From Candidatus Spongiisociaceae bacterium (lineage in GTDB: Bacteria > Actinomycetota > Acidimicrobiia > Spongiisociales > Spongiisociaceae), in assembly GCA_965243835.1 (NCBI GenBank), contig OZ251578.1:1760303-1824302 (forward strand): DNA of 64,000 nt. The letters are read 5' to 3'. Under the pieces are notes generated by a model that was not told the DNA's origin, searched no databases, and was given only the letters and a program-made list of their open reading frames with translations. Both the position numbers and the translations under genes were made by a program. Positions 1,423-64,000 of this stretch are shown piece by piece. Within the stretch, counting starts at the first letter, position 1. The number at the start of each line of letters is the position of its first letter.

Positions 1423-2238
1423 TCAGAGGGCGCAGTGGCCTTCGCACTCGTTCATAAAGTGGTCTTCTTCCTCCTCCTGGTCGGCCCGGATGGCTTCGGC
1501 GAGCGGTATGCGGCGGTGGTGGAGGAAAGCCCGCTTGCGGAACATTTGGGAGGCGTTGTGGTCGGGCGAGCGGAGGCGGGCGTCCATCCGCACCGCCTCC
1601 TCGAACAGGTCGGGGTCGCTTTCCCGCACTTCCAGCCAGCTGGCCGTACTGCGGAACGGGCATCCCACGCAGGCGCTCCTGGCCAGGGTGCGGCCCGGAT
1701 AGTTGGCCTCGAACCAGCCCTGGCATTCCCGGCGGGACATCGGCTGGTCGTCTATCAGCGGGAAGCGGTGCTTGATCCACCATTCGCGGTTCGGTTTGGC
1801 CCGCATCACCTCATCGGTGGATATGCCCAGCCACATTTCCACGTTGGTGTCCGCCGACAGCATCTGCCGGGGCCGGACGCCGAGCAGTTTTCTTACTTCG
1901 ATCCGGATCGGGTCCAACTTGTAGTTTTTGGTGCACTGCCGCCAGTTGATGCCCGCCGGGTCGCCGTTGCGCTCGGCCAAGAAGGCGGGGATGGTCAACC
2001 AGGGTTGCCCCTGGGCGTTTACCCCGTCGCGGACGTCATCCCGCAGGCTCCGCCCGTTGCTGATGGTGTGGATCGGGAAACTGACCTGCGAGCGGAGCCA
2101 TTCCACCGTGTCGTACACCCCCTGCGGCTCCCATCCCGTGTCGGCGAAGAGGGCTATATCCGGCTTGACCCCGAATACGCCCCGCTCGGCCAGAAGGCAC
2201 ATCACCGTGCTCTGAATGCCCCCGCCCAAACTGACCAC
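1423..2238 (-). CDS. phosphoadenosine-phosphosulfate (PAPS) reductase family protein (DndC/SspD-like ATP pyrophosphatase fold)
   Basis: N-terminal PP-loop-like motif VSLGGGIQS followed by DTGWE. This is typical of PAPS-reductase-like proteins of DNA-modification systems and phages. A C-terminal Cys cluster (CVGCP ... CEGHC) is present. Confidence 0.75.
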   Translation of the reverse strand: MVSLGGGIQSTVMCLLAERGVFGVKPDIALFADTGWEPQGVYDTVEWLRSQVSFPIHTISNGRSLRDDVRDGVNAQGQPWLTIPAFLAERNGDPAGINWRQCTKNYKLDPIRIEVRKLLGVRPRQMLSADTNVEMWLGISTDEVMRAKPNREWWIKHRFPLIDDQPMSRRECQGWFEANYPGRTLARSACVGCPFRSTASWLEVRESDPDLFEEAVRMDARLRSPDHNASQMFRKRAFLHHRRIPLAEAIRADQEEEEDHFMNECEGHCAL

Positions 2239-2264
2239 CCTCAGCGCCGGAGGGGCGACCGACT

Positions 2265-3047
2265 TTACCCGGTGGCCCCCCGTTCTTTTGGGGGCAGACT
2301 CTTCTCTACTATCTCATATAACTCATCATATCCAAACAAATCAAAACTAACAGTCCCCGCCCGCAAATTAAGAGCCTTCATCAACTGATTCGGGTACGGT
2401 TTACCAAACAAATAATCATGTTTCTCTATGGCCAAATCATACACGGCCGCCACTAGAATAGGGTTGGCGGCACTGTAAGTACGATCCGTTAATTGATGAT
2501 ATAACTCCACATTATCAGCCATAAATTCCAACAACTGTTCCTTTGAATATTTGGAGTATTCCGCCGCTCTATAGGCGGTTTCATATAGCCACCATAACCG
2601 GGCGGCGGCATTGGAAATACGAGGTCTAGTATTCCACAGCCAGTGATTTTTGACAAAATTAATAGGAAGAGCTTTCTTTAAATGGCTAGTGCTCCAACGA
2701 ACTGTTACATAAGGTGAGATGGCAAAGCAATTGATAGATGTCCATAACGTATCTCCAGCCGCCTCTGCCGGGCTTATACCGGAAACGGCCTGACGTACCA
2801 GCGGAGCATAGTGAGCATCGGAACCCGGACCAGACTGCTCAATTTGATTTAGAGGATCCAACGGTGCCTCCAATTCAATCTTCTTGGAGTGATATGGAGA
2901 ATCTCCGTTTTTGTCAGCCCTCTCCTCAATGCGTTTCCGGAGTTCATCCATATCACCTTTCAAGAAAAGGCCGGGGGTCTCCTCAGCCAGTTCATCTACA
3001 ATCAAGTAGCCATCTTCATTGAGCATAGGGATACTATTCAGCATCAT
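2265..3047 (-). CDS. uncharacterized 260-aa protein, paralog of 550..1344
   Basis: Same conserved blocks as 550..1344; start overlaps the stop of the upstream gene by 14 nt (operon). Confidence 0.6.
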   Translation of the reverse strand: MMLNSIPMLNEDGYLIVDELAEETPGLFLKGDMDELRKRIEERADKNGDSPYHSKKIELEAPLDPLNQIEQSGPGSDAHYAPLVRQAVSGISPAEAAGDTLWTSINCFAISPYVTVRWSTSHLKKALPINFVKNHWLWNTRPRISNAAARLWWLYETAYRAAEYSKYSKEQLLEFMADNVELYHQLTDRTYSAANPILVAAVYDLAIEKHDYLFGKPYPNQLMKALNLRAGTVSFDLFGYDELYEIVEKSLPPKERGATG

Positions 3048-3936
3048 CTATCAATCCTAACTTGAATAGTCGGCCAAATGGTCGCAACAACGAATCGCTG
3101 GTCAACAATAACTGAGCGGCTCTCATAATCGTATGTTCTGAGCCAAAATTAGAACTTCCTAAATTAATATTGTTGTCTTTTAGTTTTTGATGAATACATC
3201 TATACCAACCTATTGATGGTATAGATTCGGGTATTTCACCATCATTGTCATCATCTAATTCACGAAAATAAGATAATACAGTAATCAAAGAACTCAAAAA
3301 GACGCTGGGAATAGTTGCGTTCCTAACGCCTCGTAACCTACGAAACATATCGATGGTATCCTGATTGGCAATAATATCTACAAATCGTTCATTATGGTCA
3401 ATTTTTAAATCAAACTCATCTACCTTATATTCATCCTGGTTATCTACTTTAAGTTTGAATAAACTGTCCACCTTCAATTGTTGTGGATTAACTACGAAAG
3501 ACCAAGAATTATCAACAGCCAAGGGTCGACCTTTCTCGATTGGTATAGATATATTACCATATTCAGTATGAGCGGTAGAAGTAGGAAAATTCTCGATAGT
3601 ATCACAGGCGACAATAGCCGGATGCACCTCCACTTGATTCCTTAGGTATCTCATAGATATAGTTTCCAGCAGGCAAAACCTGTTATTATCTAATGTAGTT
3701 TCCAACGGTTGACGGTACATAGTATCACGACAATATAACATCGCCAAACAGCGAGCTTGCGAGGTGAGGATATGCTCCTCTATGATTTCATCACTTATCA
3801 AAAATTCCAACTTCACTTCAACATTGCTGGAAGTTTGCCGATTTTCCAGTAAAGTAGAGAAACTACTCTTAGGATAATCATCGGAATGCGGCCTGATGAC
3901 AGGATAAAGATAGTGCCGGTTGGCATCGTATTTCAT
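3034..3936 (-). CDS. hypothetical protein (300 aa), AT-rich, no recognizable motif
   Basis: Long ORF in a low-GC segment. Tightly packed between the GHKL ATPase gene (2-nt gap) and the paralog gene (14-nt overlap). Confidence 0.5.
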   Translation of the reverse strand: MKYDANRHYLYPVIRPHSDDYPKSSFSTLLENRQTSSNVEVKLEFLISDEIIEEHILTSQARCLAMLYCRDTMYRQPLETTLDNNRFCLLETISMRYLRNQVEVHPAIVACDTIENFPTSTAHTEYGNISIPIEKGRPLAVDNSWSFVVNPQQLKVDSLFKLKVDNQDEYKVDEFDLKIDHNERFVDIIANQDTIDMFRRLRGVRNATIPSVFLSSLITVLSYFRELDDDNDGEIPESIPSIGWYRCIHQKLKDNNINLGSSNFGSEHTIMRAAQLLLTSDSLLRPFGRLFKLGLIDDAE

Positions 3937-3938
3937 TA

Positions 3939-5801
3939 CTACTCCTCAAAAAATCTTATGGAAAAAGTTTTATCTGTGACAGGTTCCCTGGTAAAAATTT
4001 CTATTTCCCGGCGTTCGCCTGGTTCCGCATCGGGCAAGGAAAATAAATTGTCATCTACAACTTGCAGCGATTCGCCTCCTACGCTGGCTTTCCTAATACC
4101 CATAGGATACTTCGTCCCATCCTCACCCACCGACAACATTTCTATCTTGGTTGGAGTAGTTTCGGGTTGCTCAAAAGCAACAATAACCGAATGTGCATCA
4201 CTTGATCCTTTTCTAAAACGAACTCCCACAAAACTTTGGGGCGTGGCTGTGGCTTGCCGCTTTTCACCTTTCTTGCCCTTTTCCTGTCCCAGTCTATAAG
4301 TACTTGTGTCACCATTACCCGGAGTTTCAGTCGGTTGTTTATCCCGTTTTTTGGATTTTGTCTTTTTGGGTCTCCATGGTGCTCTAAGACTCTGAACAGG
4401 GTCTGTAACGATTGGATCGCCTTGGTTATCGGATTGATCCCGTCCTGTATCTTGGGATTCATCGCCCTCAATAGGAAGAAACTCCGCGAGCTCGTCGACG
4501 CTTTCTGAATCTGAGCCGGGATCGGGCTCTACAAAGTCCTTAATCACCTGATAACACCACCTGCCTATTTCATCAAACAACCCCTTGGCCTTTTTGCGCA
4601 ATTTTTCATCGCTAATATTGTCTATGCTTATTTGATCGTGCCTCGGAGATTCTGCCTGCCTCAACAGGGCTTCCCCTTTAGACTTGCATTCTATGATAGC
4701 GGTAAACCCCCACCAATGAGTAGGAAGCATAGCTAACTTAGGGAATATATATTTCCGGTCGGTTGTGATAAGCATACCAGCATCTCGCACTAATGCTATT
4801 TTCTTGTTACGAGTTTCCTTATCTACTTCAATACGAATTGATATTTCTCCTACATCATCCGCAGTAAAACGATCCACCGGTGCTTCTAAAGAAACTCGTA
4901 TATAATTCCGAACCATTTTATCTTGGATATCCTGTAAATAGTGCTTGTATGTCTTCACATTTATTTTACTATCGCCTACATTTACTTCCAATCCGCCATG
5001 TATAATGGCATGAAAATAATTACTCAGAACAATATCTATACCCCGTTTTTCCCATTCCTCTAACCCATCAGTAAAAGAATATCCAGGTATGTGGATAGCT
5101 GTACCAGGTTTCTTTAATTTTAGGTCAACGGGGACTTTATCGTTCTTAAGGGAATCGAATCTCTTCCCAAGATATCCAACCCTTTTGTATGGAGTACCGC
5201 TTTTGCCTTCGTGAGATACTAATATGGCCTTCCCCATAAAGCGTTGTCGAAGATGTCCGTTCTCCAAAAAGGCGGTGTTATACAATACTGTTCGTAAGGG
5301 AGTAGCAACAAAAGAGGCGAATTTTCCTATACCAAAAGAACCGGCGGCGTCTTTTTGCGGTTTGTTTGTCAGCCCCTCGCCCTTAGTAAGAGTTTCCCAA
5401 AATGTCGGTCGGTTATTATTCTTTATGTCCGTAGCGCCGGTTGTATTACTATCCGTTATACACAAGGATTCAATTGGGCTACCCCCCCCCCCCAATAAAC
5501 CCTTTGCTTTTTCAAAACCGGGGAGATATTTTTCTTCATTGTGGGGAGAATCTATCGCATACTGAATATGCCGCGCCAAACTATCTGTCGCCAACAAAAC
5601 GCCGTCTAACATCTTGTGCTGAAAATTGACTACCACGGGACCGGTGCCGTCCGGGGCTTCGGCATCCAAAGAGTTCTGAATAGCCTCCCTGATGATGGAC
5701 GTTTCGCGGTCGCCGGTAAAATGGGCCATGCCGGGATGGGCCGGCCCCTCGATAGCACCGGCCTGGTTCTCTTCGAACTTCCATTTGAGGTTTTGGCTCA
5801 T
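3939..5801 (-). CDS. GHKL-superfamily (histidine-kinase/MORC-like) ATPase domain protein, about 620 aa; first gene of the operon
   Basis: N box REAIQNSLDA and G box GSFGIGKFASF of Bergerat-fold ATPases. Start assigned to ATG at 5801 (MSQNLKWKF); an alternative start is at 5840. Contains an in-frame G12 tract. Confidence 0.65.
   Translation of the reverse strand: MSQNLKWKFEENQAGAIEGPAHPGMAHFTGDRETSIIREAIQNSLDAEAPDGTGPVVVNFQHKMLDGVLLATDSLARHIQYAIDSPHNEEKYLPGFEKAKGLLGGGGSPIESLCITDSNTTGATDIKNNNRPTFWETLTKGEGLTNKPQKDAAGSFGIGKFASFVATPLRTVLYNTAFLENGHLRQRFMGKAILVSHEGKSGTPYKRVGYLGKRFDSLKNDKVPVDLKLKKPGTAIHIPGYSFTDGLEEWEKRGIDIVLSNYFHAIIHGGLEVNVGDSKINVKTYKHYLQDIQDKMVRNYIRVSLEAPVDRFTADDVGEISIRIEVDKETRNKKIALVRDAGMLITTDRKYIFPKLAMLPTHWWGFTAIIECKSKGEALLRQAESPRHDQISIDNISDEKLRKKAKGLFDEIGRWCYQVIKDFVEPDPGSDSESVDELAEFLPIEGDESQDTGRDQSDNQGDPIVTDPVQSLRAPWRPKKTKSKKRDKQPTETPGNGDTSTYRLGQEKGKKGEKRQATATPQSFVGVRFRKGSSDAHSVIVAFEQPETTPTKIEMLSVGEDGTKYPMGIRKASVGGESLQVVDDNLFSLPDAEPGERREIEIFTREPVTDKTFSIRFFEE
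5482..5493 (-). repeat. homopolymeric tract, C12 on + strand = G12 in the coding strand of the GHKL ATPase gene (encodes GGGG; currently in frame)
   Basis: 12 consecutive C at 5482-5493 inside an otherwise AT-rich gene. Confidence 0.9.
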
Positions 5802-5866
5802 AGCGGGCCCTATATTACACTGGTCGGGCGGGGAAGGCAAATCCGCCGTCCCGCCGAGGAGGACTG

Positions 5867-6856
5867 ATGACCAAATTCGCTTATTTCTGCGGCCATGAGC
5901 AGTGGCACCCGGAGCAACTGGTGGAGCATGCGGTGCGGGCCGAGCAGGCCGGGTTCGACATGCTGGTGGTGTCGGAGCACTTTCACCCCTGGGTGGACGA
6001 CGCCTCGGCCTCCGGCTTCGCCTACGCCACCATCGCCGCCATGGCCCAGGCCACCGAGCGGGTGGAGTTCACCACCGGGGTGACCACCCCCCTGTGGCGA
6101 TTCCATCCCGCCTTGGTCGCCCAGGCGGCCGCCACCCTGGACCGGCTGAGCGGCGGACGGTTCCGCCTGGGAGTGGGCACCGGCGAGAACATCAACGAAG
6201 GTCCGCTCGGATACCGCTTCCCCAAGTATGCGGAACGGGCCGCCCGAATGGACGAGGCCCTGCAAATAATGCGGCGGATGCTGGATGGGGAGAAACTCAC
6301 CTTCGAGGGCGAATATTACGTAACCGACAGGGCCAAACTCTACTCCCCTCCCCTGTCCCGGGTGCCGATCCTGATGGCGGCGGGCGGCCCCAAGTCGGCC
6401 CGGCTGGCCGGTCGGCGGGCGGATGGGGTGATCGTGTCGGTGAAAGACCCGGCGGACGCCATGGAGCGGGTAATCGGCCCCGTCCGGGAGGAGGCCGCCG
6501 CCCACGGCCGCCCCGCCCCCACCGTGCTCACCTCCCGGTGGGCGATCCTGGCCGGAGACGATGACGAGGCGTGGCAAGCGTTGTTTTCCTGGCGTGGCCT
6601 GCGGGCCCCGGGACGTCTGGAGGCGGTGGATCCGATGACCCTGCGGGAGCGGGCCGACGAGTTGCCCCGCTCCGAGGTGCTGGGCCGCTACGCCCGCACC
6701 GCCAACGCCGCCGACATCATCGACGTCTACACGCCGCTACTCAAAGACATCGACGCCGATGTGATAACCATTCAGATGGCCGCCGTCGACCAGGAAGCCC
6801 TCATCGATCTGCTGGGCGCCGAAGTGCTGCCCGCCCTACGCGCCGCCGCCTCGTAA
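5867..6856 (+). CDS. LLM-class F420-dependent oxidoreductase (luciferase-like monooxygenase family)
   Basis: Luciferase-like TIM-barrel motifs (FDMLVVSEHF, RFRLGVGTGE) typical of F420-dependent G6PD-like LLM enzymes. Confidence 0.75.
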   Translation: MTKFAYFCGHEQWHPEQLVEHAVRAEQAGFDMLVVSEHFHPWVDDASASGFAYATIAAMAQATERVEFTTGVTTPLWRFHPALVAQAAATLDRLSGGRFRLGVGTGENINEGPLGYRFPKYAERAARMDEALQIMRRMLDGEKLTFEGEYYVTDRAKLYSPPLSRVPILMAAGGPKSARLAGRRADGVIVSVKDPADAMERVIGPVREEAAAHGRPAPTVLTSRWAILAGDDDEAWQALFSWRGLRAPGRLEAVDPMTLRERADELPRSEVLGRYARTANAADIIDVYTPLLKDIDADVITIQMAAVDQEALIDLLGAEVLPALRAAAS

Positions 6857-9000
6857 ACCCGCCCGGAGATAAGCCCCGATCCCCCCGCACTCCCCAAAAA
6901 CGACCCCCTTGAATTTGCCGCCCACCTGAATTAAACTGAAAAGGCGGAGCAAAACTGAGGGCGGGCGGGTGGGGGGTGGGCGGGACCCCGCCTTCCGAAA
7001 AATTTTTCCGAGAACGCGAAAAAAATACCTATTTTCCCCAATATCTCCGTCAGGGGAACGCCCACCCGCGCTGGCGCCTCCCCCGGCCCCCGTCTTTGTC
7101 ACACCACCGGATTAAGGTAGGTAACCATGATGACATACGACACCCAACTAGCCCATCAACTCCTCCGAGCGGGCGCCGACGACCCGCACGCCGAGTCCGC
7201 CCGCAACAAGAGAAAGCCACCCGCTTCCTAATAACCCCGCCCGAGAAGAAGCACCGCTCCCCCGCACTCCCCAAAACGACCCCCTTGAATTTGTCACACT
7301 AGGCCATTAAAATTAAAGGCGGAGCAAAACTGGGGGCGGGCGGGTCCCCGCCTTCCGAAAATTATTTCCGAGAACGCGAAAAAAATACTTATTCTCCCCA
7401 ATATTTTCCGTCCGAGGAACGCCCACCCGCGCAGTGCCGTCCCTGCCTCCGTCTTTGACACCCCCGGATTAAGGTAGGCAACCATGACATACAACACCCA
7501 ACTAACCCACCAACTCCTCCGAGCGGGCACCGGCGACCCGCACGCCGCGTTCCACCCCCAACCAGAGGAAGCCACCCGCTTCCTAATAACCCCGCCCGAT
7601 GAGAAACACCGCTCCCCCCACACTCCCCAAAAACGACCCCCTTGAATTTGTCACACTCGGCCATTAAAATTAAAGACGGAGCAAAACTGGGGGCGGGCGG
7701 GCGGGGGGTGGGCGGGTCCCCGCCTTCCGAAAAATTTTTCCGAGAACGCGAAAAAAATACTTATATTTATTTCCGTCAGGGGAAACGCCCGCCGCGCCGG
7801 GTCCCGCGCCTTGGCCCCCGTCTTTGTCACACCACCGGATCAAGGTAGGCAACCATGACATACAACACCCAACTAACCCACCAACTCCTCCGAGCGGGCG
7901 CCGACGACCCGCACGCCGAGTTCCACCCGCAACAAGAGAAAGCCACCCGCTTCCTAATAACCCCACCCGAGGAGAAACACCGCTCCCCCCACACTCCCCA
8001 AAACGACCCCCTTGAATTTACCGCCCGCCTGAATTAAACTGAAAAGGCGGAGCAAAACTGGGGGCGGGCGGGACCCCGCCTTCCGAAAAATTTTTCCGAG
8101 AACGCGAAAAAAATACCTATTTCCCCCAATATCTCCGTCAGAGAAACGCCCACCCGCGCTGGCACCTCCCCCGGCCCCCGTCTTTGTCACACCACCGGAT
8201 CAAGGTAGGCAACCATGACATACGACACCCAACTAACCCATCAACTGCTCCAAGCGGGCGCCAGCGACCCGCACGCCGAGTTCCACCCGCAACAAGAGAA
8301 AGCCACCCGCTTCCTAATAACCCCACCCGAGGAGAAACACCGCTCCCCCCACACTCCCCAAAAACGACCCCCTTGAATTTGTCACACTCGGCCATTAAAT
8401 TAAAAAGGCGGAGCAAAACTGGGGGCGGGCGGGCGGGGGGTGGGCGGGTCCCCGCCCTCCGAAAATTTTTTTCCGAGAACGCGAAAAAAATACTTATTTT
8501 TCCCAATATTTCCGTCAGGGGAACGCCTGCCGCGCCGGGTCCCGCGCCTTGACCGCCATCTTTGTCACACCACCGGATCAAGGTAGGCAACCACAACATA
8601 CGACACCCAACTAGCCCATCAACTCCTCCGAGCGGGCACCAACGACCCGCACGCCGCGTTCCACCCGCAACAGGAGAAAGCCACCCGCTTCCTAATAACC
8701 CCACCCGAGGAGAAACACCGCTCCCCCCACACTCCCCAAAAACGACCCCCTTGAATTTGTCACACTCGGCCATTAAATTAAAAAGGCGGAGCAAAACTGG
8801 GGGCGGGCGGGCGGGGGGTGGGCGGGTCCCCGCCCTCCGAAAATTTTTTTCCGAGAACGCGAAAAAAATACTTATTTTTCCCAATATTTCCGTCAGGGGA
8901 ACGCCTGCCGCGCCGGGTCCCGCGCCTTGACCGCCATCTTTGTCACACCACCGGATTAAGGTAGGTAACCATGATGACATACGACACCCAACTAGCCCAT
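6857..9000 (+). repeat. tandem array A: about 5.8 direct copies of a 355-380-bp cassette. Each copy holds a promoter-like element, a G-rich leader, an A5T5 palindrome, an RBS, and the start codon plus about 30 codons of the downstream helicase gene
   Basis: Motif cactccccaaaa(a)cgacccccttgaatttg recurs at about 6887, 7263, 7621, 7991, 8351 and 8731. ATGACATAC start-like segments recur at 7127, 7484, 7855, 8215 and (ATG lost) 8590; the real start is at 8971. Two unit subtypes alternate 1,2,2,1,2,2, implying a higher-order duplication of about 1.1 kb. Copies differ by several percent. Confidence 0.9.
8751..8779 (+). promoter_or_regulatory. sigma70-like promoter candidate (TTGAAT-N17-TAAATT) of the last cassette, about 190 nt upstream of the helicase start; equivalent hexamers are in every cassette
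   Basis: -35 TTGAAT at 8751-8756, 17-nt spacer, -10 TAAATT at 8774-8779. The same architecture (TTGAAT-N17-TAAAAT) is at 7642-7670 and in the other units. Confidence 0.4.
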
Positions 9001-11067
9001 CAACTGCTCCGGGCGGGGGCCGGCGACCCGCGCGCCGGGTTCCGCCCCCAACAGGAGGAGGCCATTCGTTCCCTGGTCGGGGGCCGGGCCCCGAACCGGC
9101 TGTTGCTGGTTCAGAAAACCGGATGGGGCAAAAGCTTCGTCTACTTCATCGCCACCAAGCTCCTGCGCCGACAGGGGAAGGGGCCGGTCCTGCTCATTTC
9201 GCCCCTGTTGGCGTTGATGCGCAACCAGATCGCGATGGCGGAGCGTTTGGGAGTGGCGGCCGCCGCCATCCACTCCGGCAACAAACCGGAATGGAAGAGC
9301 GTGGTCGAGCGACTGTCCCGGAACGAAATCGACATTCTGCTGATCTCGCCCGAACGGTTGGCCAATCAAAAATTTAGGGAAGACGTGTATGCGCCCCACC
9401 TAAGCCAACCAGGTATGTGGGTGGTGGACGAAGCCCACTGCATATCGGACTGGGGGCATGACTTCCGACCGGATTACCGGCGGATCGAGGGCCTGGTCCG
9501 CGGCCTGCCCCCCAATGTTCCGTTGCTGGCCACCACCGCCACCGCCAATGACCGGGTGGTGGACGACCTAGAGCAAATACTGGGGCCGGATCTGCGAATT
9601 ATGCGGGGCGACCTGGACCGGCCGTCCCTGCGTCTGCAAACCATCGCCATGCCCTCCCCCCGGGATCGCTTGGCCTGGTTGGCGGAGAATGTTCCGCAAC
9701 TGCCCGGCAACGGCGTGATTTACACCTTGACCGTCCGGGATGCGAAGCGGGTGGCCCGGTGGTTGCAAAGTTGCGGAGTGGATGTCCGCGCCTACACCGG
9801 CTCCACCGACCCGGCGGAAAGGCCGGTTCTGGAAAATGCCCTGCTGGACAATCGGCTGAAAGCCTTGGCGGCCACCTCCGCCTTGGGCATGGGTTTCGAC
9901 AAACCGGATTTGGGGTTCGTCATTCACTATCAGGCCCCCGGATCGGTGATCGCCTACTACCAGCAGGTGGGCCGGGCGGGGCGCGGCATCGGCGAGGCCC
10001 GCGGTGTGCTGTTGAGCGGCGTCGAGGACCAGGACATCATCGATTACTTCCGCGAAAACGCCTTCCCGACCCGGGCGGAAGTGAAGGAAATGCTGGCCGC
10101 TCTTAGGAGAGCGAAGGACGGGCTGTCGTTCTACGACCTGGAAACCAGGGTCAACCTCAACAGCTACCGCTTGCGCCAAACCCTGAAATTGATGGAGTTG
10201 GAGACCCCGGCTCCGTTGGCCCGGCAGGATTCGGTCTATCAACTGACCCCGCATCGTCTGGGAGCGGGCTTCTGGGAGCGCGTGGAACGTCTCAACCGAC
10301 TGCGCCGGGAGGAGCAGGCTGAAATGCGGGAATACGTCGGGCTTGCATCGGGGCATATGAACTTTCTCATCAAGGCCCTCAACGGCTCCCCCGCCGCCGG
10401 CGATGACCCGCCGACCCTGCCGCCCCTTCCCACCACCATTTCCGGAAAACACCGGGTGGCCGCCGAGGATTTCCAAAAACGCGACTGGTATAGCATCGCG
10501 CCGCGTAAAAAATGGCCGAGGGGCGGCCTCCCCCGACTCGGCGTCCGCGGCCCCATCCCAGAAGACCGCAAATACCAACGGGGACGGGCCCTTAGTTTGT
10601 GGGGATTCGGCGCTCTCGGTCGGCTGGTAAAACAGGGAAAATACCAAGACGCCCGCTTCCCGGATCAATTGGTGGAAGATTGCCGGCGAATGTTCCGCGA
10701 CTGGAACCCGCAACCAACGCCGCGCTGGGTCGCCTGCGTGCCTTCACACAGCCATCCCGACCTGGTACCCGATTTCGCCCGGCGGCTGGCGGACGCCCTG
10801 GGTCTCCCCTTCCGCTCCGTACTGGAAAAAACCGGCAAAAACCGTCCCGCCCAAAAAGTTATGAACAACAGCAGGATGAGGGCCGACAACGCGGACGGAG
10901 CGTTCCGGGTAAACGACCGCCTGATGGGCCCGGAATACGGGGAACCGGTACTGCTGGTGGATGACGTTGTGAATTCAAGATGGACGATGACCGTGTGCGC
11001 CTGGCTGTTGCTGACGCAGGGAAGCGGCGAGGTGTTTCCGTTGGCCTTGGCGCAGGCGGGGGACTAA
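8971..11067 (+). CDS. RecQ-family DNA helicase fused to a C-terminal ComFC/GntX-like phosphoribosyltransferase (PRTase) domain
   Basis: RecQ motifs: PQQEEAI, TGWGKSF (Walker A), DEAHCISDWGHDFRPDY, LATTATA, YQQVGRAGRGIG. C-terminal about 130 aa carries ComFC-like motifs (NADGAFRV ... VLLVDDVVNS), characteristic of type-I PRTase/ComF proteins. Confidence 0.8.
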   Translation: MMTYDTQLAHQLLRAGAGDPRAGFRPQQEEAIRSLVGGRAPNRLLLVQKTGWGKSFVYFIATKLLRRQGKGPVLLISPLLALMRNQIAMAERLGVAAAAIHSGNKPEWKSVVERLSRNEIDILLISPERLANQKFREDVYAPHLSQPGMWVVDEAHCISDWGHDFRPDYRRIEGLVRGLPPNVPLLATTATANDRVVDDLEQILGPDLRIMRGDLDRPSLRLQTIAMPSPRDRLAWLAENVPQLPGNGVIYTLTVRDAKRVARWLQSCGVDVRAYTGSTDPAERPVLENALLDNRLKALAATSALGMGFDKPDLGFVIHYQAPGSVIAYYQQVGRAGRGIGEARGVLLSGVEDQDIIDYFRENAFPTRAEVKEMLAALRRAKDGLSFYDLETRVNLNSYRLRQTLKLMELETPAPLARQDSVYQLTPHRLGAGFWERVERLNRLRREEQAEMREYVGLASGHMNFLIKALNGSPAAGDDPPTLPPLPTTISGKHRVAAEDFQKRDWYSIAPRKKWPRGGLPRLGVRGPIPEDRKYQRGRALSLWGFGALGRLVKQGKYQDARFPDQLVEDCRRMFRDWNPQPTPRWVACVPSHSHPDLVPDFARRLADALGLPFRSVLEKTGKNRPAQKVMNNSRMRADNADGAFRVNDRLMGPEYGEPVLLVDDVVNSRWTMTVCAWLLLTQGSGEVFPLALAQAGD

Positions 11068-12125
11068 TGACCTGGCCGCTTCTGCCCAATACACAGGCGA
11101 TTCTGCTTTTGACCGCGCCCCTGCTGGCGGGAGGGGAGGGCGACGTAGCCGAACGGTTAAACTTGCGGGGATACCGAAAACTGGAAGAACATCTGCGCGG
11201 TCGGGGGCGCGATCTAGCCGACCTGTTGCTGGAGGACCCGGAGGAGGTTCTGGGGGAAAGCCCGCCCTGCGACATCGGGAGAATCAAGGACCTGCTACGG
11301 AGGGGAGGGCGTCTGGCGGCGGCCGTCGACCATTGGAGCACGCGCGCCATCTGGGTGATCAGCCGCTTCGACGAGGAATACCCGCGCCGCTTCCGCACTC
11401 GCCTCGCCGGCTCGGCCCCTCCTCTGCTGTACGGGTGCGGGGACCGGTCGCTCCTCAACCGGGGGGGATTGGCGGTGGTGGGGCCGCGCCAAGCGGACGA
11501 AGACGCCCTGAAATTCGCCCAGTGGACGGGAGGCTTGACCGCCCGGGCCGGGTTTCCTTTGATTTCCGGCGGGGCGCGGGGTGTGGACCGGGCGGCTATG
11601 ACCGGGGCCATGGAAGCGGGCGGGCAGGCGGTGGGGGTGCTGGCGGGTAAACTGGAAAAAGAAATAATGACCCGCGACCGGCGGGATTGGATTCTGGAGG
11701 AGCAGATGTTGATGGTCTCCCCCTACGACCCCGGGGCCGGTTTTCACCGCGGGACTGCTATGGGACGCAACAAGTTGATCTACAACCTGGCCGACGCCGC
11801 CCTGGCGGTGGAAGCGGACCCCAAACGGGGCGGAACCCGCGCCGGGGCGATGAACCAACTGCAGGCCAACCGCAAACAACCCGACCGACAGGTTCCCATA
11901 TACGTACGGGACATCCCCAGCCCCGGCCTGGACTCCCTGCGGGAAAACGGAGCGCAAACCTGGCCCGACCCGGAAACAGCCGACGAACTAAAAAACATCC
12001 TGGACAGCGCAACGGTATTTGACTCTCCGGACCACTCCCAACCTCGCCCACCTGTCATCCCGGCTGATGAGCTATTTCCCGAAACCAGTCAACAGCAACC
12101 ATTGCCCCTCGGTGCCGGAGGGTAA
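11067..12125 (+). CDS. dprA: DprA/Smf-family protein (DNA-processing protein A; SLOG/Rossmann fold), translationally coupled to the helicase gene
   Basis: Start ATG overlaps helicase stop (TAATG at 11065-11069). DprA SAM-like N-domain (EYPRRF..APPLLYGCGD) and Rossmann core (LAVVGPRQA, ISGGARGVDRAAMTGAMEAGGQAVGVLAGKL, SPYDPGAGFHRGTAMGRNKLIYNLADAALAVEA). Confidence 0.7.
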   Translation: MTWPLLPNTQAILLLTAPLLAGGEGDVAERLNLRGYRKLEEHLRGRGRDLADLLLEDPEEVLGESPPCDIGRIKDLLRRGGRLAAAVDHWSTRAIWVISRFDEEYPRRFRTRLAGSAPPLLYGCGDRSLLNRGGLAVVGPRQADEDALKFAQWTGGLTARAGFPLISGGARGVDRAAMTGAMEAGGQAVGVLAGKLEKEIMTRDRRDWILEEQMLMVSPYDPGAGFHRGTAMGRNKLIYNLADAALAVEADPKRGGTRAGAMNQLQANRKQPDRQVPIYVRDIPSPGLDSLRENGAQTWPDPETADELKNILDSATVFDSPDHSQPRPPVIPADELFPETSQQQPLPLGAGG

Positions 12126-12560
12126 CTACTCCTCCGCATCATCAATATTGTTAGGGTTCATAGACTCCGCCAACTGCTCTACTTGGTTTATCAATAATTC
12201 AATCTCGGGAACAGTAGGTACCAAATCATATTCGTGATGGTGACAGGCCCGACTTAGGGCTACCCAAGCGGAGTGGGCATCTTCGGATGTCACAGTATCA
12301 ACTGCAACCCTACCGTCTCGGGCTAATTGCTTAAGACAAGCAAGTTGCGTAAACCGGCTTGTATTCTTCATATAGCGATAATAGTAATGGTCATTCCAAA
12401 GTCTGTCCAGTGTCGCTTCAAGAACTTGGCGAGTCAGCAAAGCCGCCGCCCGATGCCATTCGCCTCGCGGCCCATCAGTATGGTTGAGTAAACCCCGAGC
12501 GAGGTTTAGTAGGTCAAGGGTCATAACGACGTAATCTTTCGGCCAAACTTTGACAATCAT
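12126..12560 (-). CDS. small His-rich hypothetical protein (144 aa), downstream partner of the Rad50/SMC-like ATPase
   Basis: AT-rich ORF overlapping the upstream gene by 47 nt; no recognizable motif. Confidence 0.45.
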   Translation of the reverse strand: MIVKVWPKDYVVMTLDLLNLARGLLNHTDGPRGEWHRAAALLTRQVLEATLDRLWNDHYYYRYMKNTSRFTQLACLKQLARDGRVAVDTVTSEDAHSAWVALSRACHHHEYDLVPTVPEIELLINQVEQLAESMNPNNIDDAEE

Positions 12561-14922
12561 TAATTAGATTAGCCAAATCACCAGAATATTTACTATGAGT
12601 ACCTTTATTAGTATCGCTGAATACCTCTGCAAATCTCTTCCCCCATTTACTGGAGATTTTACCAAACACTTTGTCGCTTTTATTAATACTATCAAATAAC
12701 GCTACAGAGGCTTTCTGACTTAATTTCTTGGCCTCGAATAACTCTTGTTCAATCACCTGATGAGTTTTACCTTTATCCAGCCATCGTCGCCATACTGCTT
12801 CCACACAGGCGGCTTCTAATCCGCTACGACAAAACCCTGGAATAACCCGCCTTGCTATATCCTCTAGCATATCATCATCCTTCAAAATGGACCGTGCCTC
12901 AAAAAAATATTGAATAACCGGATCGCGCTTTTCCGCAATAGTAACTTTCGATTTTACCGATCTCCTAACCTCTAGACAATGGTGTTCAATATCTAAATGA
13001 CGTAAAGACTCCGGGAGTCGATTGTCGTGAGTGAACACAATTAGTTGACGACTCTTGGCAACCTTGGCGAATACTCTGGCTAGTCCATCAACCCGAGCAG
13101 GGTCCATAGATTGTATCGGATCGTCAATAACCAAAAAGCGAAAGGGACTAGCGGGAAGCATTACCCGGGGAAAGAAAATGGACAAAGCCAAACTGTTTAT
13201 TTCTCCTTGACTAACCACAGACAAGGCATCTGTCTTAATATCATCCACTTCCACCCCAAGGGCCACTCTACGTTTAGTGCGACTACCAGTTAGTTGAACG
13301 GAAAGTAAATCAACGTTGCTTTCCAAACGTAGTTCTTTCCAAATTTCCAAGGCCTGGTTCTCTATAGGAGACCAACGGGTGTTACGTATATTTTCGTTTA
13401 CTTCTTTAAGATATTTTTCTGCCCTTTTTAGGTTAGTAATTTCTGATTGCTCTCTCCTTACTCGACAGGCTTTGTGAACCCAAGGCGAAAGAATAGACAT
13501 AGCCGCTAGCCACTTTTCTTCTCTATCAGAGTACAACTGACGAGCTTGTTCAATAATTTTATTTGCTTCACTTTCGACCGAGGAGTATAATGTAAGCAAG
13601 TGTTCATCTATTTCACTTTTATCGTCAGGCAACGAACTCCACTTTTTCCAAATAGAAACCAGCGAACCTATCTCTATAGTTTCAGTGTCGGACAATAGAG
13701 GAGGTTCTATCAAAATCTCAACCTCCTTTATTACGTTTTCCAGATTACTTTTGGCATCCCTATATTTTTGAGAGCTTGCTTTCAGTCTTTCTATCTGCTC
13801 TTCTACTTTGGTAACCCAACTACTATCCAAAATACCTTCTTCGCAAACTGGACAACGATTGTTCTCGTGTGTGCCATAATATTTCAAAGCCAGATTTAAT
13901 ATACTCATTAAGTTTTCGGCGTGCTCTGCTTCCGTACCAGATAAGTTAGACCAATCTGTATATGCCTTGTTCAGTTTTTTTGCTATTTTCAATACTTGCT
14001 CTTGATTTGGAACCTTGATATTTATAAGAGTTTGTAAATCCTGATGATAAGTAACTGGCTCCGATTGAAGACTTTTTATAATATCCAAGTCCCAATTTCG
14101 TTTCTTGACAGCTTCCACAACTTTTGTTGCACGCGGGTCTTCTAGTTGCTCAAACTGGGGAAGAATATTATTTTTTCGTTCTGCCTCTACCTGGTTTGCC
14201 AGTTTTTCTCGTGCTAATCGGGTATTAGCTAAAGCTTTCATCGCTTGGGCAATAATACCAATACCGAGTACTTTGCTGAGAGTGTCATGCAGGGATGACG
14301 GACTATTTTCAATGATGCCAAGTTCCTTATACGATAAAATGGGGCGATATAAATCAAGTGGTTCTTTCCAACCTATTCCATCTAGATCGGAAATTTCCTT
14401 TCCATGATGTTGCGCACTGCATTTTCCTTCTTCCAGTTCGGAATTTTGGGACCAAGTGCACTCTACCATAGTTGGTTTATTCATTCCTTCTACTTGAAAT
14501 CTGGCGGATATTTTGGTATTATTGCCCTGATGGAGATTCCGCCAGCCTTGCTTCCAAACTACCGCTTTTTTGCTTTCCCAGCGATAGCTATCCCCGGTTA
14601 ACAATACTTCCAATCCTTCTGCGAAGCTGGACTTGCCGGAGCCGTTTCTGCCTACAACGACCGTAAGACCCGGGCCGGGAGGTATCTCCAATGTGGCCTC
14701 CGGTCCGATACCGCGAAACCCGGATACCGTTATGTCCTGTAGGTAAACAGGCGGAACCAGCTCTCCGTTGTCCGACATCGTATCGGGTCCATCTACGTAT
14801 TCATCAGTTAAGACGCGCTCCACGTCATCCTCACCCCTGAGGGCGGCTAGCACCAGGCTTATAATCTGCTCGTCTTTAGTAAGTTTGGCGAGCTCTTGTT
14901 CTACTTCTTGATAGAGGCCCAT
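12514..14922 (-). CDS. Rad50/SbcC/SMC-like ABC ATPase with a central CxxC zinc hook (802 aa)
   Basis: Walker [13 protein letters not shown] signature VSQGE, Walker B RFLVIDDP, H-loop IVFTHD, long coiled-coil middle with NRCPVCEEG zinc-hook motif. AT-rich relative to flanks. RBS AGGAGGGG 5 nt before ATG at 14922. Confidence 0.7.
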   Translation of the reverse strand: MGLYQEVEQELAKLTKDEQIISLVLAALRGEDDVERVLTDEYVDGPDTMSDNGELVPPVYLQDITVSGFRGIGPEATLEIPPGPGLTVVVGRNGSGKSSFAEGLEVLLTGDSYRWESKKAVVWKQGWRNLHQGNNTKISARFQVEGMNKPTMVECTWSQNSELEEGKCSAQHHGKEISDLDGIGWKEPLDLYRPILSYKELGIIENSPSSLHDTLSKVLGIGIIAQAMKALANTRLAREKLANQVEAERKNNILPQFEQLEDPRATKVVEAVKKRNWDLDIIKSLQSEPVTYHQDLQTLINIKVPNQEQVLKIAKKLNKAYTDWSNLSGTEAEHAENLMSILNLALKYYGTHENNRCPVCEEGILDSSWVTKVEEQIERLKASSQKYRDAKSNLENVIKEVEILIEPPLLSDTETIEIGSLVSIWKKWSSLPDDKSEIDEHLLTLYSSVESEANKIIEQARQLYSDREEKWLAAMSILSPWVHKACRVRREQSEITNLKRAEKYLKEVNENIRNTRWSPIENQALEIWKELRLESNVDLLSVQLTGSRTKRRVALGVEVDDIKTDALSVVSQGEINSLALSIFFPRVMLPASPFRFLVIDDPIQSMDPARVDGLARVFAKVAKSRQLIVFTHDNRLPESLRHLDIEHHCLEVRRSVKSKVTIAEKRDPVIQYFFEARSILKDDDMLEDIARRVIPGFCRSGLEAACVEAVWRRWLDKGKTHQVIEQELFEAKKLSQKASVALFDSINKSDKVFGKISSKWGKRFAEVFSDTNKGTHSKYSGDLANLINDCQSLAERLRRYDP

Positions 14923-14975
14923 TTACCCCTCCTTGGAGATGCCGTCCCATTCAGTATACCGCACTGATGTTCGGC

Positions 14976-15482
14976 TCAGGCGGGGAGGGTTCCGGTTTTC
15001 AAAAGGTTACGGCGGCGGGCGGGGTCGGACAGGCGGCAACGGCGCCATAGCCAAAGCAGGTAGGCCAGGCCCGCCGCCTCCTGGAGCAGGAGCGGCCAGC
15101 GGAAATTTGTCCAGTCGTTGGGGACCCCGACCGGGAACTCCCAGCCGAAAAAGGGCCAGAGCAGGGTGTCGCGGAGCGTCCACATTCCGTCCAGCAACAG
15201 GTGAAACATCACTCCCACCGCCAACGCCATCCATCGTCTGCGGGACGGCCTCCCGCGCCGGGTCGCAATCAACACCGTCACCAGCAGAACGGCGAAGAAC
15301 AGCAACGTGTGGCCGAAGATGCGGCCCGTCCCGAACGCGCCCGCCCCGAAAACCAAACCCGTGGGCTTGTCCAACAGGTCGGGCAAAACGGCCCCCGCCA
15401 GCAGGAAACGCACATCCACCGCCGGGTCCCGGAACAGGTAACGGAACAGGAACAGCGACCCCCCCAGATGCCAAAACAGCAT
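14976..15482 (-). CDS. membrane-bound metal-dependent hydrolase (YdjM/DUF457-like)
   Basis: Several TM segments, conserved His/Asp pattern similar to LexA-regulon YdjM-type inner-membrane hydrolases. Confidence 0.4.
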   Translation of the reverse strand: MLFWHLGGSLFLFRYLFRDPAVDVRFLLAGAVLPDLLDKPTGLVFGAGAFGTGRIFGHTLLFFAVLLVTVLIATRRGRPSRRRWMALAVGVMFHLLLDGMWTLRDTLLWPFFGWEFPVGVPNDWTNFRWPLLLQEAAGLAYLLWLWRRCRLSDPARRRNLLKTGTLPA

Positions 15483-20135: not shown

Positions 20136-20159
20136 TGATAATCCCGGACGGGGGGCGTT

Positions 20160-21322: not shown

Positions 21323-21396
21323 GGGCGTTTAGCTCAGTCAGGGAGAGCGCTTCCCTTACAAGGAAGAGGTCGGCGGTTCGAACCCGTCAACGCCCA
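21323..21396 (+). tRNA. tRNA-Val (anticodon TAC)
   Basis: Manual cloverleaf folding: acceptor GGGCGTT/AACGCCC, D-arm GCTC-AGTCAGGGA-GAGC, anticodon stem CTTCC/GGAAG with loop CTTACAA, T-arm GGCGG-TTCGAAC-CCGTC, discriminator A; CCA not encoded. Confidence 0.85.
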
Positions 21397-21499
21397 CTCT
21401 TTCCCTCGTCCGCGTTCGCCGGTCCGCGCCGGCGGGTCCGGTTGCGGGGGGAGCTGGGGAAACGCATGAAATAGAAACTTCTTTAGAAGGAGTCGTCCG

Positions 21500-28188: not shown

Positions 28189-28189
28189 C

Positions 28190-30566: not shown

Positions 30567-30594
30567 GGGAATCGCCTTTCTCTGGGATGGTCGT

Positions 30595-63121: not shown

Positions 63122-63122
63122 A

Positions 63123-63743: not shown

Positions 63744-64000
63744 AAAAATACATGAAGCAAGCCACTTTAGGTAGCATAGCACCATTCACTTATGGTAAAG
63801 GCTTACTCAAATCTAAGAGAAACCACTTCGGTAGGGTACCGGTATATGGTTCAAATGGTATCATCGATTATCATGATACGCCGCTAACAGATGGACCCAC
63901 AATTATAATAGGTCGCAAAGGTACTGTAGGAGCTGTGCATTTTTCTCGTATCCCTTGCTGGCCAATTGACACAACATTTTACATAACAAGCTCAGATATT
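63740..64000 (+). CDS. hsdS: type I restriction-modification specificity subunit HsdS, N-terminal part (continues beyond window)
   Basis: N-terminal TRD-like sequence (GRVPVYGSNGIIDYHDTPLTDGPTIIIGRKGTVGAVHF..WPIDTTFYI) typical of HsdS. Confidence 0.7.
   Translation, partial: MKKYMKQATLGSIAPFTYGKGLLKSKRNHFGRVPVYGSNGIIDYHDTPLTDGPTIIIGRKGTVGAVHFSRIPCWPIDTTFYITSSDI

Follow-up and report, generated by a model that had tools for sequence, protein, structure and literature searches.

A putative dispersed promoter cassette with a conserved G-run tract in two segmentally duplicated arrays of a Candidatus Spongiisociaceae genome

Bacterial genomes harbor several kinds of intergenic repeats. The Correia elements of Neisseria, enterobacterial ERIC/REP-type elements and MITEs are dispersed and can carry promoters. 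The mycobacterial MIRU/VNTR loci are intergenic tandem repeats with units of 40-100 bp that are not composed of a promoter plus gene-start fragments. G-quadruplexes (G4) in bacterial promoters or 5'UTRs are also known from Deinococcus, Paracoccus nasT and E. coli reporter studies, and promoter G4s have so far mostly been loose statistical enrichments or single cases. Promoter G4 motifs of Streptomyces and Pseudomonas were described with G4PromFinder (PMC5801747), and RNA G4s (rG4) are a subject of work on M. tuberculosis PE/PPE transcripts (PMC10801317). In Neisseria gonorrhoeae the pilE G4 lies next to an sRNA promoter (Cahoon & Seifert 2013, PMC3547852). There is only one such element, it is oriented away from pilE, and its role is in gene conversion that draws on silent cassettes (PMC3547852).

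We have analyzed a 64-kb stretch of DNA from a Candidatus Spongiisociaceae bacterium (the window), in which two tandem arrays share a core of promoter-like and G-rich boxes. We consider it rather probable that this core represents one type within a dispersed family of promoter cassettes specific to the lineage and with a selected G-run pattern, and that the arrays are segmental duplications. Array A (6857-9074, + strand; 6876-9064 with period ~378 and 5.9 copies by TRF and repeat finder) is composed of six tandem units, and its target is a RecQ-family DEAD/Helicase_C helicase gene (8971-11067, +) with a DprA-like gene downstream (10980-12125). An exact-protein look-up found no identical protein on record for this helicase. 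Array B (20140-21300, - strand; 20190-21240 by TRF and repeat finder) contains about 2.5 units of ~440 nt between its target, an MFS_1 transporter gene (18975-20126, -), and the divergent tRNA-Val(TAC) gene (21323-21397, +) that bounds the array. The MFS_1 ATG at 20126 gives a protein of 383 aa, matching the relatives. The initial annotation had placed A on the + strand upstream of the helicase and B on the - strand upstream of the MFS gene, each aimed at its downstream gene, and this is correct; the segment it singled out, 7631-7760, is the core of array A unit 3.

The cassette has a length of about 125-150 bp and a shared box order, an A-tract plus GACCCCCTTG (-35), a 17-nt spacer, TA(T/A)(A/G)(T/A)T (-10), the G-tract and an A/T palindrome. 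The -35 context is an A-tract plus (C)GACCCCC that overlaps TTGNNN. The palindrome is of the form A4-5/T5-7, and one cassette subfamily has in addition a C-run and a GAACGCGAAAAA box. A LexA/Cheo-box identity of GAACGCGAAAAA was rejected by eye because the inverted GTTC half-site is absent. The complete set of boxes can be followed in A3 (7616-7770, +), with -35 TTGAAT at 7642-7647, -10 TAAAAT at 7665-7670, the G-tract at 7689-7716, the C-run at 7718-7724, the A5T5 palindrome at 7727-7742 and the GAACGCGAAAAA box at 7744-7755. Two spacer alleles occur in array A. A1 (6883-7044, +) carries allele I and a full G-tract with runs 3-3-3-6-3-3, and its promoter spacer resembles that of the single cassette copy in the relative L129. 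A2 (7261-7409, +) carries allele II, and a 15-nt deletion leaves three G-runs; in A4 (7988-8130, +; allele I) the G-tract is also cut to three runs. A5 (8347-8509, +) has allele II with a full G-tract, and A6 (8725-8887, +) adjoins the intact helicase gene. On the - strand, B1 (20191-20331), a GACCCTCTTG variant with a six-run G-tract at 20249-20274, adjoins the intact MFS gene. B2 (20623-20774, -) has -35 TTGTTT at 20748-20743, -10 TATATT at 20725-20720, seven G-runs at 20717-20688 and the palindrome at 20676-20661. The most distal copy is B3 (21058-21207, -; G-tract 21150-21121).

The three B cores were reverse-complemented and aligned with the six from A. The six + strand units of A and the three - strand units of B have the ordered boxes in common: AAAA(C)GACCCCCTTG, a hexamer resembling a -10 (in A TAAAAT or TAAACT, in B TATATT), the G-tract and TCCG(CG)AAAA(A)TTTTT(T)CGG are colinear. 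The related 'ttttc[c/g]cgagaacg' box that had been counted with them is not colinear, lying 3' of the palindrome in A and, in cassette orientation, 5' of the -35 in B. The gap between -10 and G-tract is 18-21 nt in A (an extra 16-19 nt) versus 2 nt in B; across all versions it is 2-4 nt in most and 18-21 nt in the helicase version. Exact GACCCCCTTG occurs at nine sites in the window, six in A (+), two in B (-) and one unrelated coding site at 32568, and the third B copy carries it with one mismatch. The A/T palindrome (up to two mismatches) has 11 matches versus 0.5 expected, restricted in the window to A and B, and nine of the ten occurrences of GGGNGGGNGGGNGGG (0.35 expected) lie inside the two arrays. 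A profile built from B-type cassettes only matches the A units colinearly over model positions 8-112 (E = 7e-11 to 7e-9), and an A-only profile matches B at E ~0.004-0.007. When the G-tracts were masked, the profile search gave no significant A/B cross-match, and homology of A and B independent of the G-tract is not demonstrable. The measurable similarity is that of the G-tract plus two short boxes, with about 65% identity over ~105 nt.

The comparison set comprised the syntenic relatives L127, L129, L131, L132, L133, L135 and L136, and three loci (L030, L036, L082) of OZ241841.1, a related MAG of Ca. Spongiisociaceae. Where the flanks align upstream of the helicase gene, the cassette is absent in five relatives (L131, L132, L133, L135, L136), single in L129, present as four units in L127 and as six in the window. 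A joint profile matches L030 (E = 1e-27), L036 (2e-22) and L082 (3e-16), and also cassettes in L131 and L132. In OZ241841.1 the cassette thus lies upstream of unrelated genes at at least three loci, compared to two loci in the 64-kb window. The helicase-type cassette is nearer to L030 (E = 2e-14) and L082 (7e-11) than to array B of its own window (E ~0.004). Since every state (empty, single, array) is seen upstream of the helicase, and unrelated genes carry the cassette at the OZ241841.1 loci, the earlier proposal of a portable promoter module is supported. The comparison places the cassette first at the MFS gene of the clade; upstream of the helicase gene it was, by parsimony with one outgroup (L133), inserted later rather than deleted in the empty relatives. 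A comparison of filled and empty helicase sites gave no convincing terminal inverted repeats or target duplications, although divergence of the flanks precludes boundaries at base level. In the window and in L127 the insertion site has a possible direct repeat, CCCCAA, which is missing in L129.

A scan of a genome collection with the permissive pattern GACCCCCTTG N25-50 GGGCGGGNGGG gave at least 111 matches; among the matches listed, three are true relatives (L030, L036 and L082, all in OZ241841.1) and the remainder are mostly chance. A Bosea repeat among the matches listed is unrelated to the cassette. With a stricter pattern, a metagenome scan gave 15 matches, all of them chance or poly-G, and viral scans gave nothing or poly-G contig-end artefacts. 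The literature under the lineage name and for elements of this type yielded nothing specific. The cassette hosts are uncultured, probably sponge-associated relatives of Ca. Spongiisociaceae among the Acidimicrobiia. The scaffolds of three relatives end inside the G-tract.

Judged by its sequence, the core behaves as a sigma-70-type (housekeeping) promoter. TTGNNN, a spacer of exactly 17 nt and TANNNT are kept in 13 of 13 distinct matching cassette versions from eight locus/lineage types, while the spacer sequence between the hexamers is unrelated from one cassette type to another. The sole non-match to the pattern is a decayed L127 unit with the -10 TAAACC. In array A a consensus scan identifies TTGAAT-17-TAAAAT with 9 of 12 matches. 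Conservation of the -35 only as TTGNNN counts against the promoter reading. Every cassette copy faces its adjacent gene at a distance of 70-200 nt. The genes faced are the helicase gene, the MFS gene (window, L131, L132), an IS481-like ORF (L030) and a restriction-enzyme-like ORF (L036).

The G-tract has the architecture (G3N)3-G6-(NG3)2-3, i.e. 3-3-3-6-3-3(-3) with 1-nt loops. This run architecture is invariant in all full-length versions, with a first run of five G in most helicase-type copies, and the loops vary among C, A and T. The cassettes of the relatives likewise have six or seven runs with 1-nt loops. The 'four or more' G-runs ascribed to both arrays apply to four of six A units and all three B units, which have six or seven; A2 and A4 have three. 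That the motif is an extreme one is borne out by G4Hunter scores of 2.5-2.8. Apart from a poly-G at 62534, the 64 kb contain no potential quadruplex sequence (PQS) with multiple runs and 1-nt loops outside the cassettes. The ViennaRNA G-quadruplex model predicts one or two three-layer G4s per tract, and for the seven runs of B2 two in tandem. Within array A, G>A changes are found in 1 of 86 G-sites x copies of the G-tract versus 44 of 145 in the adjacent gene-fragment copies of the units (Fisher P = 2e-9). Invariant runs, variable loops and resistance to G>A drift together therefore argue for selection on the G-run pattern. This selection is most simply explained by G4 formation at the transcript start, with folding predicted from the run pattern. 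However, conservation of the runs would be expected just as well if a protein recognised GGGN repeats, and the shortened tracts of two array units, which are without obvious consequence, count against selection for a quadruplex.

Such a protein is part of a different explanation, in which the boxes (-35 context, G-run operator, A/T palindrome and CGCGAAAA) are a regulon signature that unrelated promoters gained independently because one sigma factor or regulator binds them all, the G-runs serving for protein binding and not as a G4. Conservation is indeed limited to the boxes, with free spacers and a -10-to-G-tract distance of 2-21 nt, column identity among the copies of a single genome is only ~63%, and inverted terminal repeats and target duplications were not found. 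The three OZ241841.1 copies have only the common boxes in common (63% mean column identity) and are not the near-identical copies expected of a MITE or IS. However, in an intergenic region that can otherwise be aligned, the ~150-nt block appears complete and in one step, the similarity of L036 and L082 continues for another ~70 nt upstream of the -35 (CTTAGCC...CTTCTACCAGGNATTTTG), and it is improbable that a 26-31-nt tract with identical run architecture originated independently at least five times. A helicase, an MFS transporter, an IS481-like transposase remnant and a restriction-enzyme fragment do not point to a common function either. A regulon is accordingly quite unlikely; a convergent assembly of short boxes is a possible alternative to a copied cassette. 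The leader RNA invites further explanations. The initial annotation had suggested a switch in which the 3' G-runs either pair with the C-run in a terminator-like hairpin or fold as a G-quadruplex, gating read-through. A stem of 9-11 pairs followed by AAAATTTTT is found by pattern scan in five of six A units and three of three B units, the hairpin of B2 exceeds its shuffled versions in stability (z = -3.4), and a C4-6 run replaces the absent seventh G-run in the six-run versions (A, L030, L082, L129). Against this, terminator-like sites are no commoner than in shuffled sequences (6 versus 6.2 and 3 versus 4.5 expected), and the T-run starts 4-5 nt past the stem, unlike that of a canonical intrinsic terminator. 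Stability of the hairpin varies from copy to copy (z = 0.0 in A3, -1.5 in L030 and +2.3 in L131, which is the ortholog of B) and is thus not conserved; L131 and L036 lack the hairpin, and L036 is without a C-rich partner. With the C-run absent from B-type copies and hairpin z values from -3.4 to +2.3, a conserved switch has to be abandoned, and we regard a switch as very improbable. Palindrome and T-run within 40-70 nt after the promoter might also delimit a small non-coding RNA gene, encoding a G-rich RNA of ~50-80 nt with a weak terminator, and the arrays would then be multi-copy sRNA loci. This is scarcely credible, given that the cassettes have no Rfam match even at E <= 1 (tRNA-Val alone passes the gathering threshold, and at E <= 1 there are only sub-threshold chance matches), Watson-Crick structure is not conserved across cassettes, a canonical terminator is absent, and the gene-facing position of all copies at 70-200 nt is promoter-like.

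The arrays had been described as a tandemly amplified module. The units are indeed in tandem, but what has been amplified is a promoter-plus-gene-start segment and not the cassette alone. Each repeat of 355-378 bp (A) or ~440 bp (B) contains cassette, 5'UTR, a degenerate version of the first ~30 codons and a junction. Array A units of 374, 355, 371, 360 and 378 nt precede the gene-proximal functional unit; they comprise the cassette, 5'UTR, an RBS-like AAGGTAGG and the helicase start plus ~33 codons, and at the junction helicase codon ~34 (...CGCTTCCTA) is joined to the sequence around the stop codon of the luciferase-like gene that lies upstream. The MTYDTQLAHQLLRAG... copies of the helicase start show a lost ATG, a frameshift and premature stops. 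They lie on the + strand at 7484-7585 (a decaying copy, MTYNTQLTHQLLRAG...), 7127-7230 (frameshifted), 7855-7956, 8215-8316 and 8593-8694 (no ATG); in the last, which follows A5, the ATG is now ACA. One lost ATG, one frameshift and variable stops led us to reject the idea that the A units contain functional small ORFs. The alignment of the array B units extends across the 5'UTR and into the beginning of the MFS coding sequence; these units are composed of the cassette, 5'UTR, a degenerate version of the 5' coding end of the MFS gene (e.g. about 20521-20586) and upstream sequence. L136 has an independent ~215-nt duplication at the MFS locus, and arrays C and D of the window are gene-fragment arrays without a cassette. 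Since the units are segments that include gene starts, we see the arrays as a local structural by-product and not as amplification of a regulatory unit, a by-product that the G-tract has possibly favoured.

The last point can be taken further, to a transcription-activated G4 recombination or fragile site similar to Neisseria pilE, for which promoter activity is the means and not the end. Transcription from the G-tract would free the G-strand to fold, and a stall or nick would lead to template switching and unequal exchange, yielding the arrays and perhaps also cassette copies at new sites. The pilE geometry fits, with a sigma-70 promoter abutting the G4, predicted starts inside it and the G-strand as non-template (PMC3547852). 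Three independent tandem duplications are located at cassette 5' regions (A in the window/L127 ancestor, B in the window, B in L136), and the left breakpoint in L136 is a few nt from the 3' edge of the G-tract. In ~170 kb of the relatives, TRF reported as long-period arrays only array A of L127 and, ~200 nt away from the cassette of L036, a repeat with a period of 73 nt. However, the breakpoints of window arrays A and B are away from the G-tract, arrays C and D carry no cassette, and the single-copy cassettes of L129, L131, L132 and L030 are unduplicated. There is also ascertainment bias, as the window was chosen for arrays that share a core, and surviving small tandem duplications are expected to straddle gene ends regardless. 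Since the helicase N-terminus is conserved among the relatives, the decaying fragment copies are not used as variation cassettes, and pilE-type gene conversion from silent copies does not apply. We therefore judge a hotspot of this kind to be rather unlikely, and a recombination role of the cassette is only suggested by the nearby duplications. Unlikely, too, is a self-propagating 'transcribed G4' element that sets promoter output, acts as a template-switching hotspot and seeds new copies upstream of genes. If true, quadruplexes on the non-template strand would again and again give rise to tandem duplications of neighbouring gene starts, and a bacterial regulatory element would spread and remodel the 5' ends of genes through its own secondary structure, without a transposase.

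Returning to the promoter cassette, a housekeeping-type RNA polymerase would start at or just before the G-tract. The non-template strand would then carry the G-runs, and the leader RNA would have them at its 5' end. The run pattern may be held invariant by selection for the folding of one or two parallel G-quadruplexes, in the DNA and/or the RNA, that would adjust initiation or escape, or make the long 5' leader more stable. In the window lineage, segments of 355-378 bp and ~440 bp with cassette, 5'UTR and the first ~30 codons were duplicated in tandem, first at microhomology and then presumably by unequal crossing-over, leaving promoter stacks interleaved with decaying gene-start fragments. 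What makes the cassette informative is that its G-run architecture is conserved base for base while the sequence between the boxes drifts, that the G-runs on one strand are upheld against a strong opposing mutational drift, and that, inside a narrow clade, a further gene has acquired a whole cassette. The empty, single, fourfold and sixfold states provide a natural comparative series for the effect of a start-site G4 on transcription or mRNA fate, and the same helicase-site series bears on whether G-tracts promote local tandem duplication. For the annotation of symbiont genomes it matters that such arrays be read as promoter stacks plus pseudogene starts; spurious small ORF calls and assembly breaks are a risk at these sites.

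Several described systems share features with the cassette. As at pilE, a sigma-70-type promoter abuts a G3-run motif, predicted starts fall inside the G-tract and the G-rich strand is non-template; in six of seven cassette types (B, L131, L132, L030, L036, L082) the G-tract starts 2-4 nt after the -10. Unlike the pilE element, to which it has no sequence homology, the cassette is multi-copy and gene-facing, has six to seven G-runs in the order 3-3-3-6-3-3(-3), and the N-terminus of its target is invariable. With the promoter-proximal G4s of GC-rich bacteria it shares a G4-capable tract by an AT-rich -10 and a presumed effect on transcription or mRNA. In those reports, however, loose motifs (G2-4, loops 1-10) that form no copied unit are statistically enriched, for the most part on the upstream side of the AT-rich element, whereas the cassette has one strictly conserved multi-run tract downstream of the -10 and is a dispersed unit with presence/absence polymorphism. 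Correia, ERIC/REP and MITE elements resemble it as short non-coding units at many intergenic sites that can provide the gene next to them with a promoter and whose insertions are polymorphic between strains. In contrast to these, no terminal inverted repeats or target-site duplications were detected for the cassette, its copies are diverged outside the boxes, and no cognate transposase was found for it. The arrays, finally, are like MIRU/VNTR loci in being actinobacterial and intergenic, in their orientation with the flanking gene and in a copy number that differs (four in L127, six in the window). Unlike MIRU/VNTR, the units of arrays A and B are segmental duplications of 355-440 bp that carry decaying coding sequence.

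The window contains four long-period tandem arrays: A (6876-9064, ~370 nt x 6), B (~20190-21240, ~440 nt x 2.5), C (~24680-25900) and D (28337-30266, 275 nt x 7). The common core that the initial annotation reported for A and B is real; its coordinates, 7631-7760, are the core of array A unit 3. When the three B cores are reverse-complemented and aligned with the six A cores, the same boxes follow one another in both: an A-tract with GACCCCCTTG, a hexamer resembling a -10, an extended G-tract and an A/T palindrome, CCG(CG)AAAAATTTTT(C)CGG. A profile made only from B-type copies matches the A units colinearly (E = 7e-11 to 7e-9). The reverse profile search of A against B gave E ~0.004, and with the G-tracts masked no A/B cross-match was left. 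The objection that the similarity is one of G-rich sequence only is countered by the colinear flanking boxes and favored by the loss of the masked matches. A ttttccgagaacg box, also claimed for both arrays, is not colinear between A and B. Exact GACCCCCTTG occurs at 9 sites in the 64 kb, 8 of them inside arrays. Window scans found 11 matches to the palindrome (0.5 expected) and 10 to GGGNGGGNGGGNGGG (0.35 expected), both essentially restricted to A and B. Multi-run potential quadruplex sequences with 1-nt loops are, in the window, cassette tracts only, bar one isolated poly-G run (62534-62548); the GC content falls to 33% at the window end (63001-64000).

Eight locus or lineage types of this cassette were compared. 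The -35 element is TTGNNN, preceded by GACCCCC and the A-tract, and is separated from the -10 (TAAAAT, TAAACT, TATATT or TATGTT) by exactly 17 nt, while the spacer sequence is unrelated between types. The distance from each copy to the gene it faces is 70-200 nt. Hexamers and an optimal spacing that stay fixed while the spacer sequence varies freely are the comparative signature of a putative sigma-70-type promoter. In six types 2-4 nt separate the -10 from the G-tract; the helicase type has 16-19 more nt at this place, for a distance of 18-21 nt. A start 6-8 nt past the -10 hexamer would therefore land inside or just before the G-tract.

Array A lies upstream of a RecQ-family helicase gene (DEAD + Helicase_C), which is followed by a DprA-like gene. 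In each unit the cassette is succeeded by a 5'UTR of ~110 nt, an RBS-like AAGGTAGG and a start codon that opens a copy of the first ~33 helicase codons; the intact gene starts MMTYDTQLAHQLLRAGAGDPRAGFRPQQEEAIR..., and the copies read MTYNTQLTHQLLRAGTGDPHAAFHPQPEEATRFLI* and variants thereof. At the unit junction helicase codon ~34 (...CGCTTCCTA) is fused to sequence around the stop codon of the luciferase-like gene that lies upstream (TAAACCCGCCCGG); the two were joined illegitimately, with microhomology of a few bases. The helicase-start copies are decaying: the ATG is gone in A5, A1 is frameshifted and the stops vary. Array B has the same build on the opposite strand, and its units match the gene-proximal copy across the cassette, the 5'UTR and the first ~60 nt of the MFS_1 coding sequence (ATG at 20126, giving 383 aa as in relatives). 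The earlier proposal that the module itself was tandemly amplified therefore needs correction: the units are duplicated segments that each hold a promoter and a gene start. Array C is made of degenerate fragments from the 5' end of G6PD (23301-24779, - strand) and from the 3' part of a PGI-like gene (26540-28504, - strand), and the seven units of array D derive from the 3' end of a RidA-like gene (30189-30611, - strand); no cassette was found in either. Because all four arrays are built of degenerate gene-fragment segments, short tandem duplications straddling gene boundaries are a habit of the source genome, and they are expected to survive since one intact gene copy remains. An imperfect, GTC/GTA-rich 33/66-nt repeat at 40241-40366 probably codes, on the - strand, for an acidic low-complexity stretch.

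Array A is moreover mosaic, with two alleles of the promoter spacer: A1 and A4 have type I, and A2, A3, A5 and A6 type II. The type II spacer plus -10 (TTTGTCACACTCGGCCATTAAAAT; 7642-7670 and equivalents) closely resembles the gene-proximal TTTGTCACACCACCGGATTAAGGT (7821-7848), which is kept in all relatives, cassette-free ones included. This likeness suggests that the cassette recombined with a native -10-like region (TAAGGT/TATGGT).

Homologs of the window helicase, for which a database look-up found no exact protein record, share 93, 90, 84, 83, 83, 81, 69 and 67% identity and lie on syntenic contigs. Where the helicase is 69% identical (L133), the gap to the luciferase-like gene is 65 nt and empty; at 81-84% (L131, L132, L135, L136) it measures 121-123 nt, with a conserved gene-proximal UTR and no cassette; at 90% (L129) it is 253 nt and holds exactly one cassette; at 93% (L127) there are four units that all carry a gene-start fragment, and in the window six. 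For this series parsimony favors a single insertion of a ~150-nt block, after which segments were duplicated in tandem and the copy number changed. Low-GC segments (37-50%) at 2000-5900 and 12100-15000 border the helicase/DprA operon and encode DUF6339 proteins, several proteins without a Pfam match and an SMC_N/AAA_15/AAA_21 ATPase (12514-14922, - strand). The region looks like a defense-type island, but every relative examined shows the same synteny there.

At the MFS locus the window has three cassette copies, and L131 and L132, both without a helicase-locus cassette, have one each. L136 carries an independent ~215-nt duplication here (palindrome, UTR and coding start) whose left breakpoint lies at the 3' edge of the G-tract. 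The 2.77-Mb MAG OZ241841.1, labelled Ca. Spongiisociaceae, Acidimicrobiia, has no MFS-locus cassette and has cassettes at at least three other loci: upstream of an IS481-like transposase remnant (L030), upstream of a restriction-enzyme-like fragment (L036) and at L082. The claim of a portable module is supported by these further loci and by a helicase site that is empty, single or arrayed among syntenic relatives. Synteny and 67% helicase identity suggest that the window stems from a related acidimicrobial lineage, probably one associated with sponges. In profile searches the helicase-type cassette is closer to L030 and L082 than to array B of its own window, which points to a different site of an old family, and not to B, as the source from which it was copied. 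L036 and L082 also have ~70 nt upstream of the -35 in common (CGCGAAA-AT-CTTAGCC...CTTCTACCAGGNATTTTG), so the dispersed unit may be longer in this MAG. About 200 nt upstream of its cassette, L036 has a 73-nt tandem repeat (5605-5934; 4.5 copies with 70% match). In the luciferase-helicase gap of OZ241841.1 (L134 7816-10001) there are two small ORFs and a DUF222/HNH gene, and its helicase either lacks part of the N-terminus or is split in two (80 aa + 617 aa). Another DUF222/HNH gene is found just upstream of the L030 cassette. Three short-read scaffolds of relatives end inside the MFS-cassette G-tract (L127, 21566-21606; L129, 21614-21663; L136, 13497-13560), and the Logan contig L128 begins within the A array. 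Copy numbers in MAGs are probably underestimated because cassettes or arrays break assemblies.

The G-tract has a uniform architecture, G3-N-G3-N-G3-N-G6-N-G3-N-G3(-N-G3), with C, A or T as loops. The expectation of four or more G-runs per copy holds except in A2 and A4, which keep three runs after each lost 15 nt by slippage. With G-quadruplexes allowed, ViennaRNA predicts two abutting three-layer quadruplexes for seven-run versions and one quadruplex plus a G4/C4 hairpin for six-run versions; G4Hunter scores are 2.5-2.8. Compared with the functional genes, the decayed copies in arrays A to D (for example 7127-8694, 24800-25880 and 28337-30190) changed in a strongly strand-asymmetric way on the + strand, irrespective of gene orientation. 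Ratios of G>A to C>T are 43:0 (A), 68:1 (D) and 50:5 (C), and of T>C to A>G 23:10 (C) and 49:8 (D), all counts being inflated by shared ancestry; G>C is also commoner than C>G. This spectrum accounts for an AT skew that reaches +0.6 in the arrays; its origin could be an extreme deamination bias between replication strands or a process aimed at repeats. The G-tract of array A sits on the strand that loses G. Relative to the gene-proximal unit, G>A affects 44/145 G-sites x copies in the gene-fragment copies and 1/86 in the tract (P = 2e-9), a contrast that stays strong even though shared ancestry inflates the counts. The rarity of G>A in the tract compared with the adjacent fragments argues that the G-runs are under selection, or at the least are being actively preserved, in upstream units too.

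Comparative evidence thus supports a portable module made of a promoter and a G4-class tract, and the best supported mechanism would be a promoter cassette whose leader opens with a tract that can form a G4 on the non-template strand. Candidate roles of the G4 are a change in the kinetics of the open complex or of escape, the formation of R-loops, protection of the long leader at its 5' end, or protein binding. The initial annotation had also considered a G4-versus-terminator switch, which is unsupported as a general feature: the C-run partner is absent from B-type and L036 copies, hairpin stability against shuffles spans z = -3.4 to +2.3 between versions, the T-run lies 4-5 nt off the stem and terminator-like sites are no more numerous than in shuffles. 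The cassette matches no Rfam family. The transcribed G-tract may in addition be a fragile or recombinogenic site, which is compatible with the promoter reading. Three independent duplications at cassette-bearing 5' regions, one of them with a breakpoint at the G-tract edge, point this way, as does the occurrence of long-period arrays only at or beside cassettes in ~170 kb of relatives. However, arrays C and D lack cassettes, the breakpoints in the window lie away from the G-tract, and the sample is biased by the way the window was flagged.

Promoter-bearing dispersed repeats (Correia, MITEs) resemble the cassette, and MIRU-type VNTRs its arrays, in single aspects only. Our literature search turned up no earlier account of this cassette. 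The promoter-G4 associations published for GC-rich bacteria involve loosely defined motifs that lie upstream of the AT-rich element (PMC5801747). The nearest architectural analogue is the pilE G4 of Neisseria, where an sRNA promoter abuts the G4 and start sites lie within it (PMC3547852). The pilE G4 is single in its genome, points away from pilE and serves gene conversion (PMC3547852), whereas the N-terminus of the cassette's target is conserved, so that the cassette departs from the pilE type in function.
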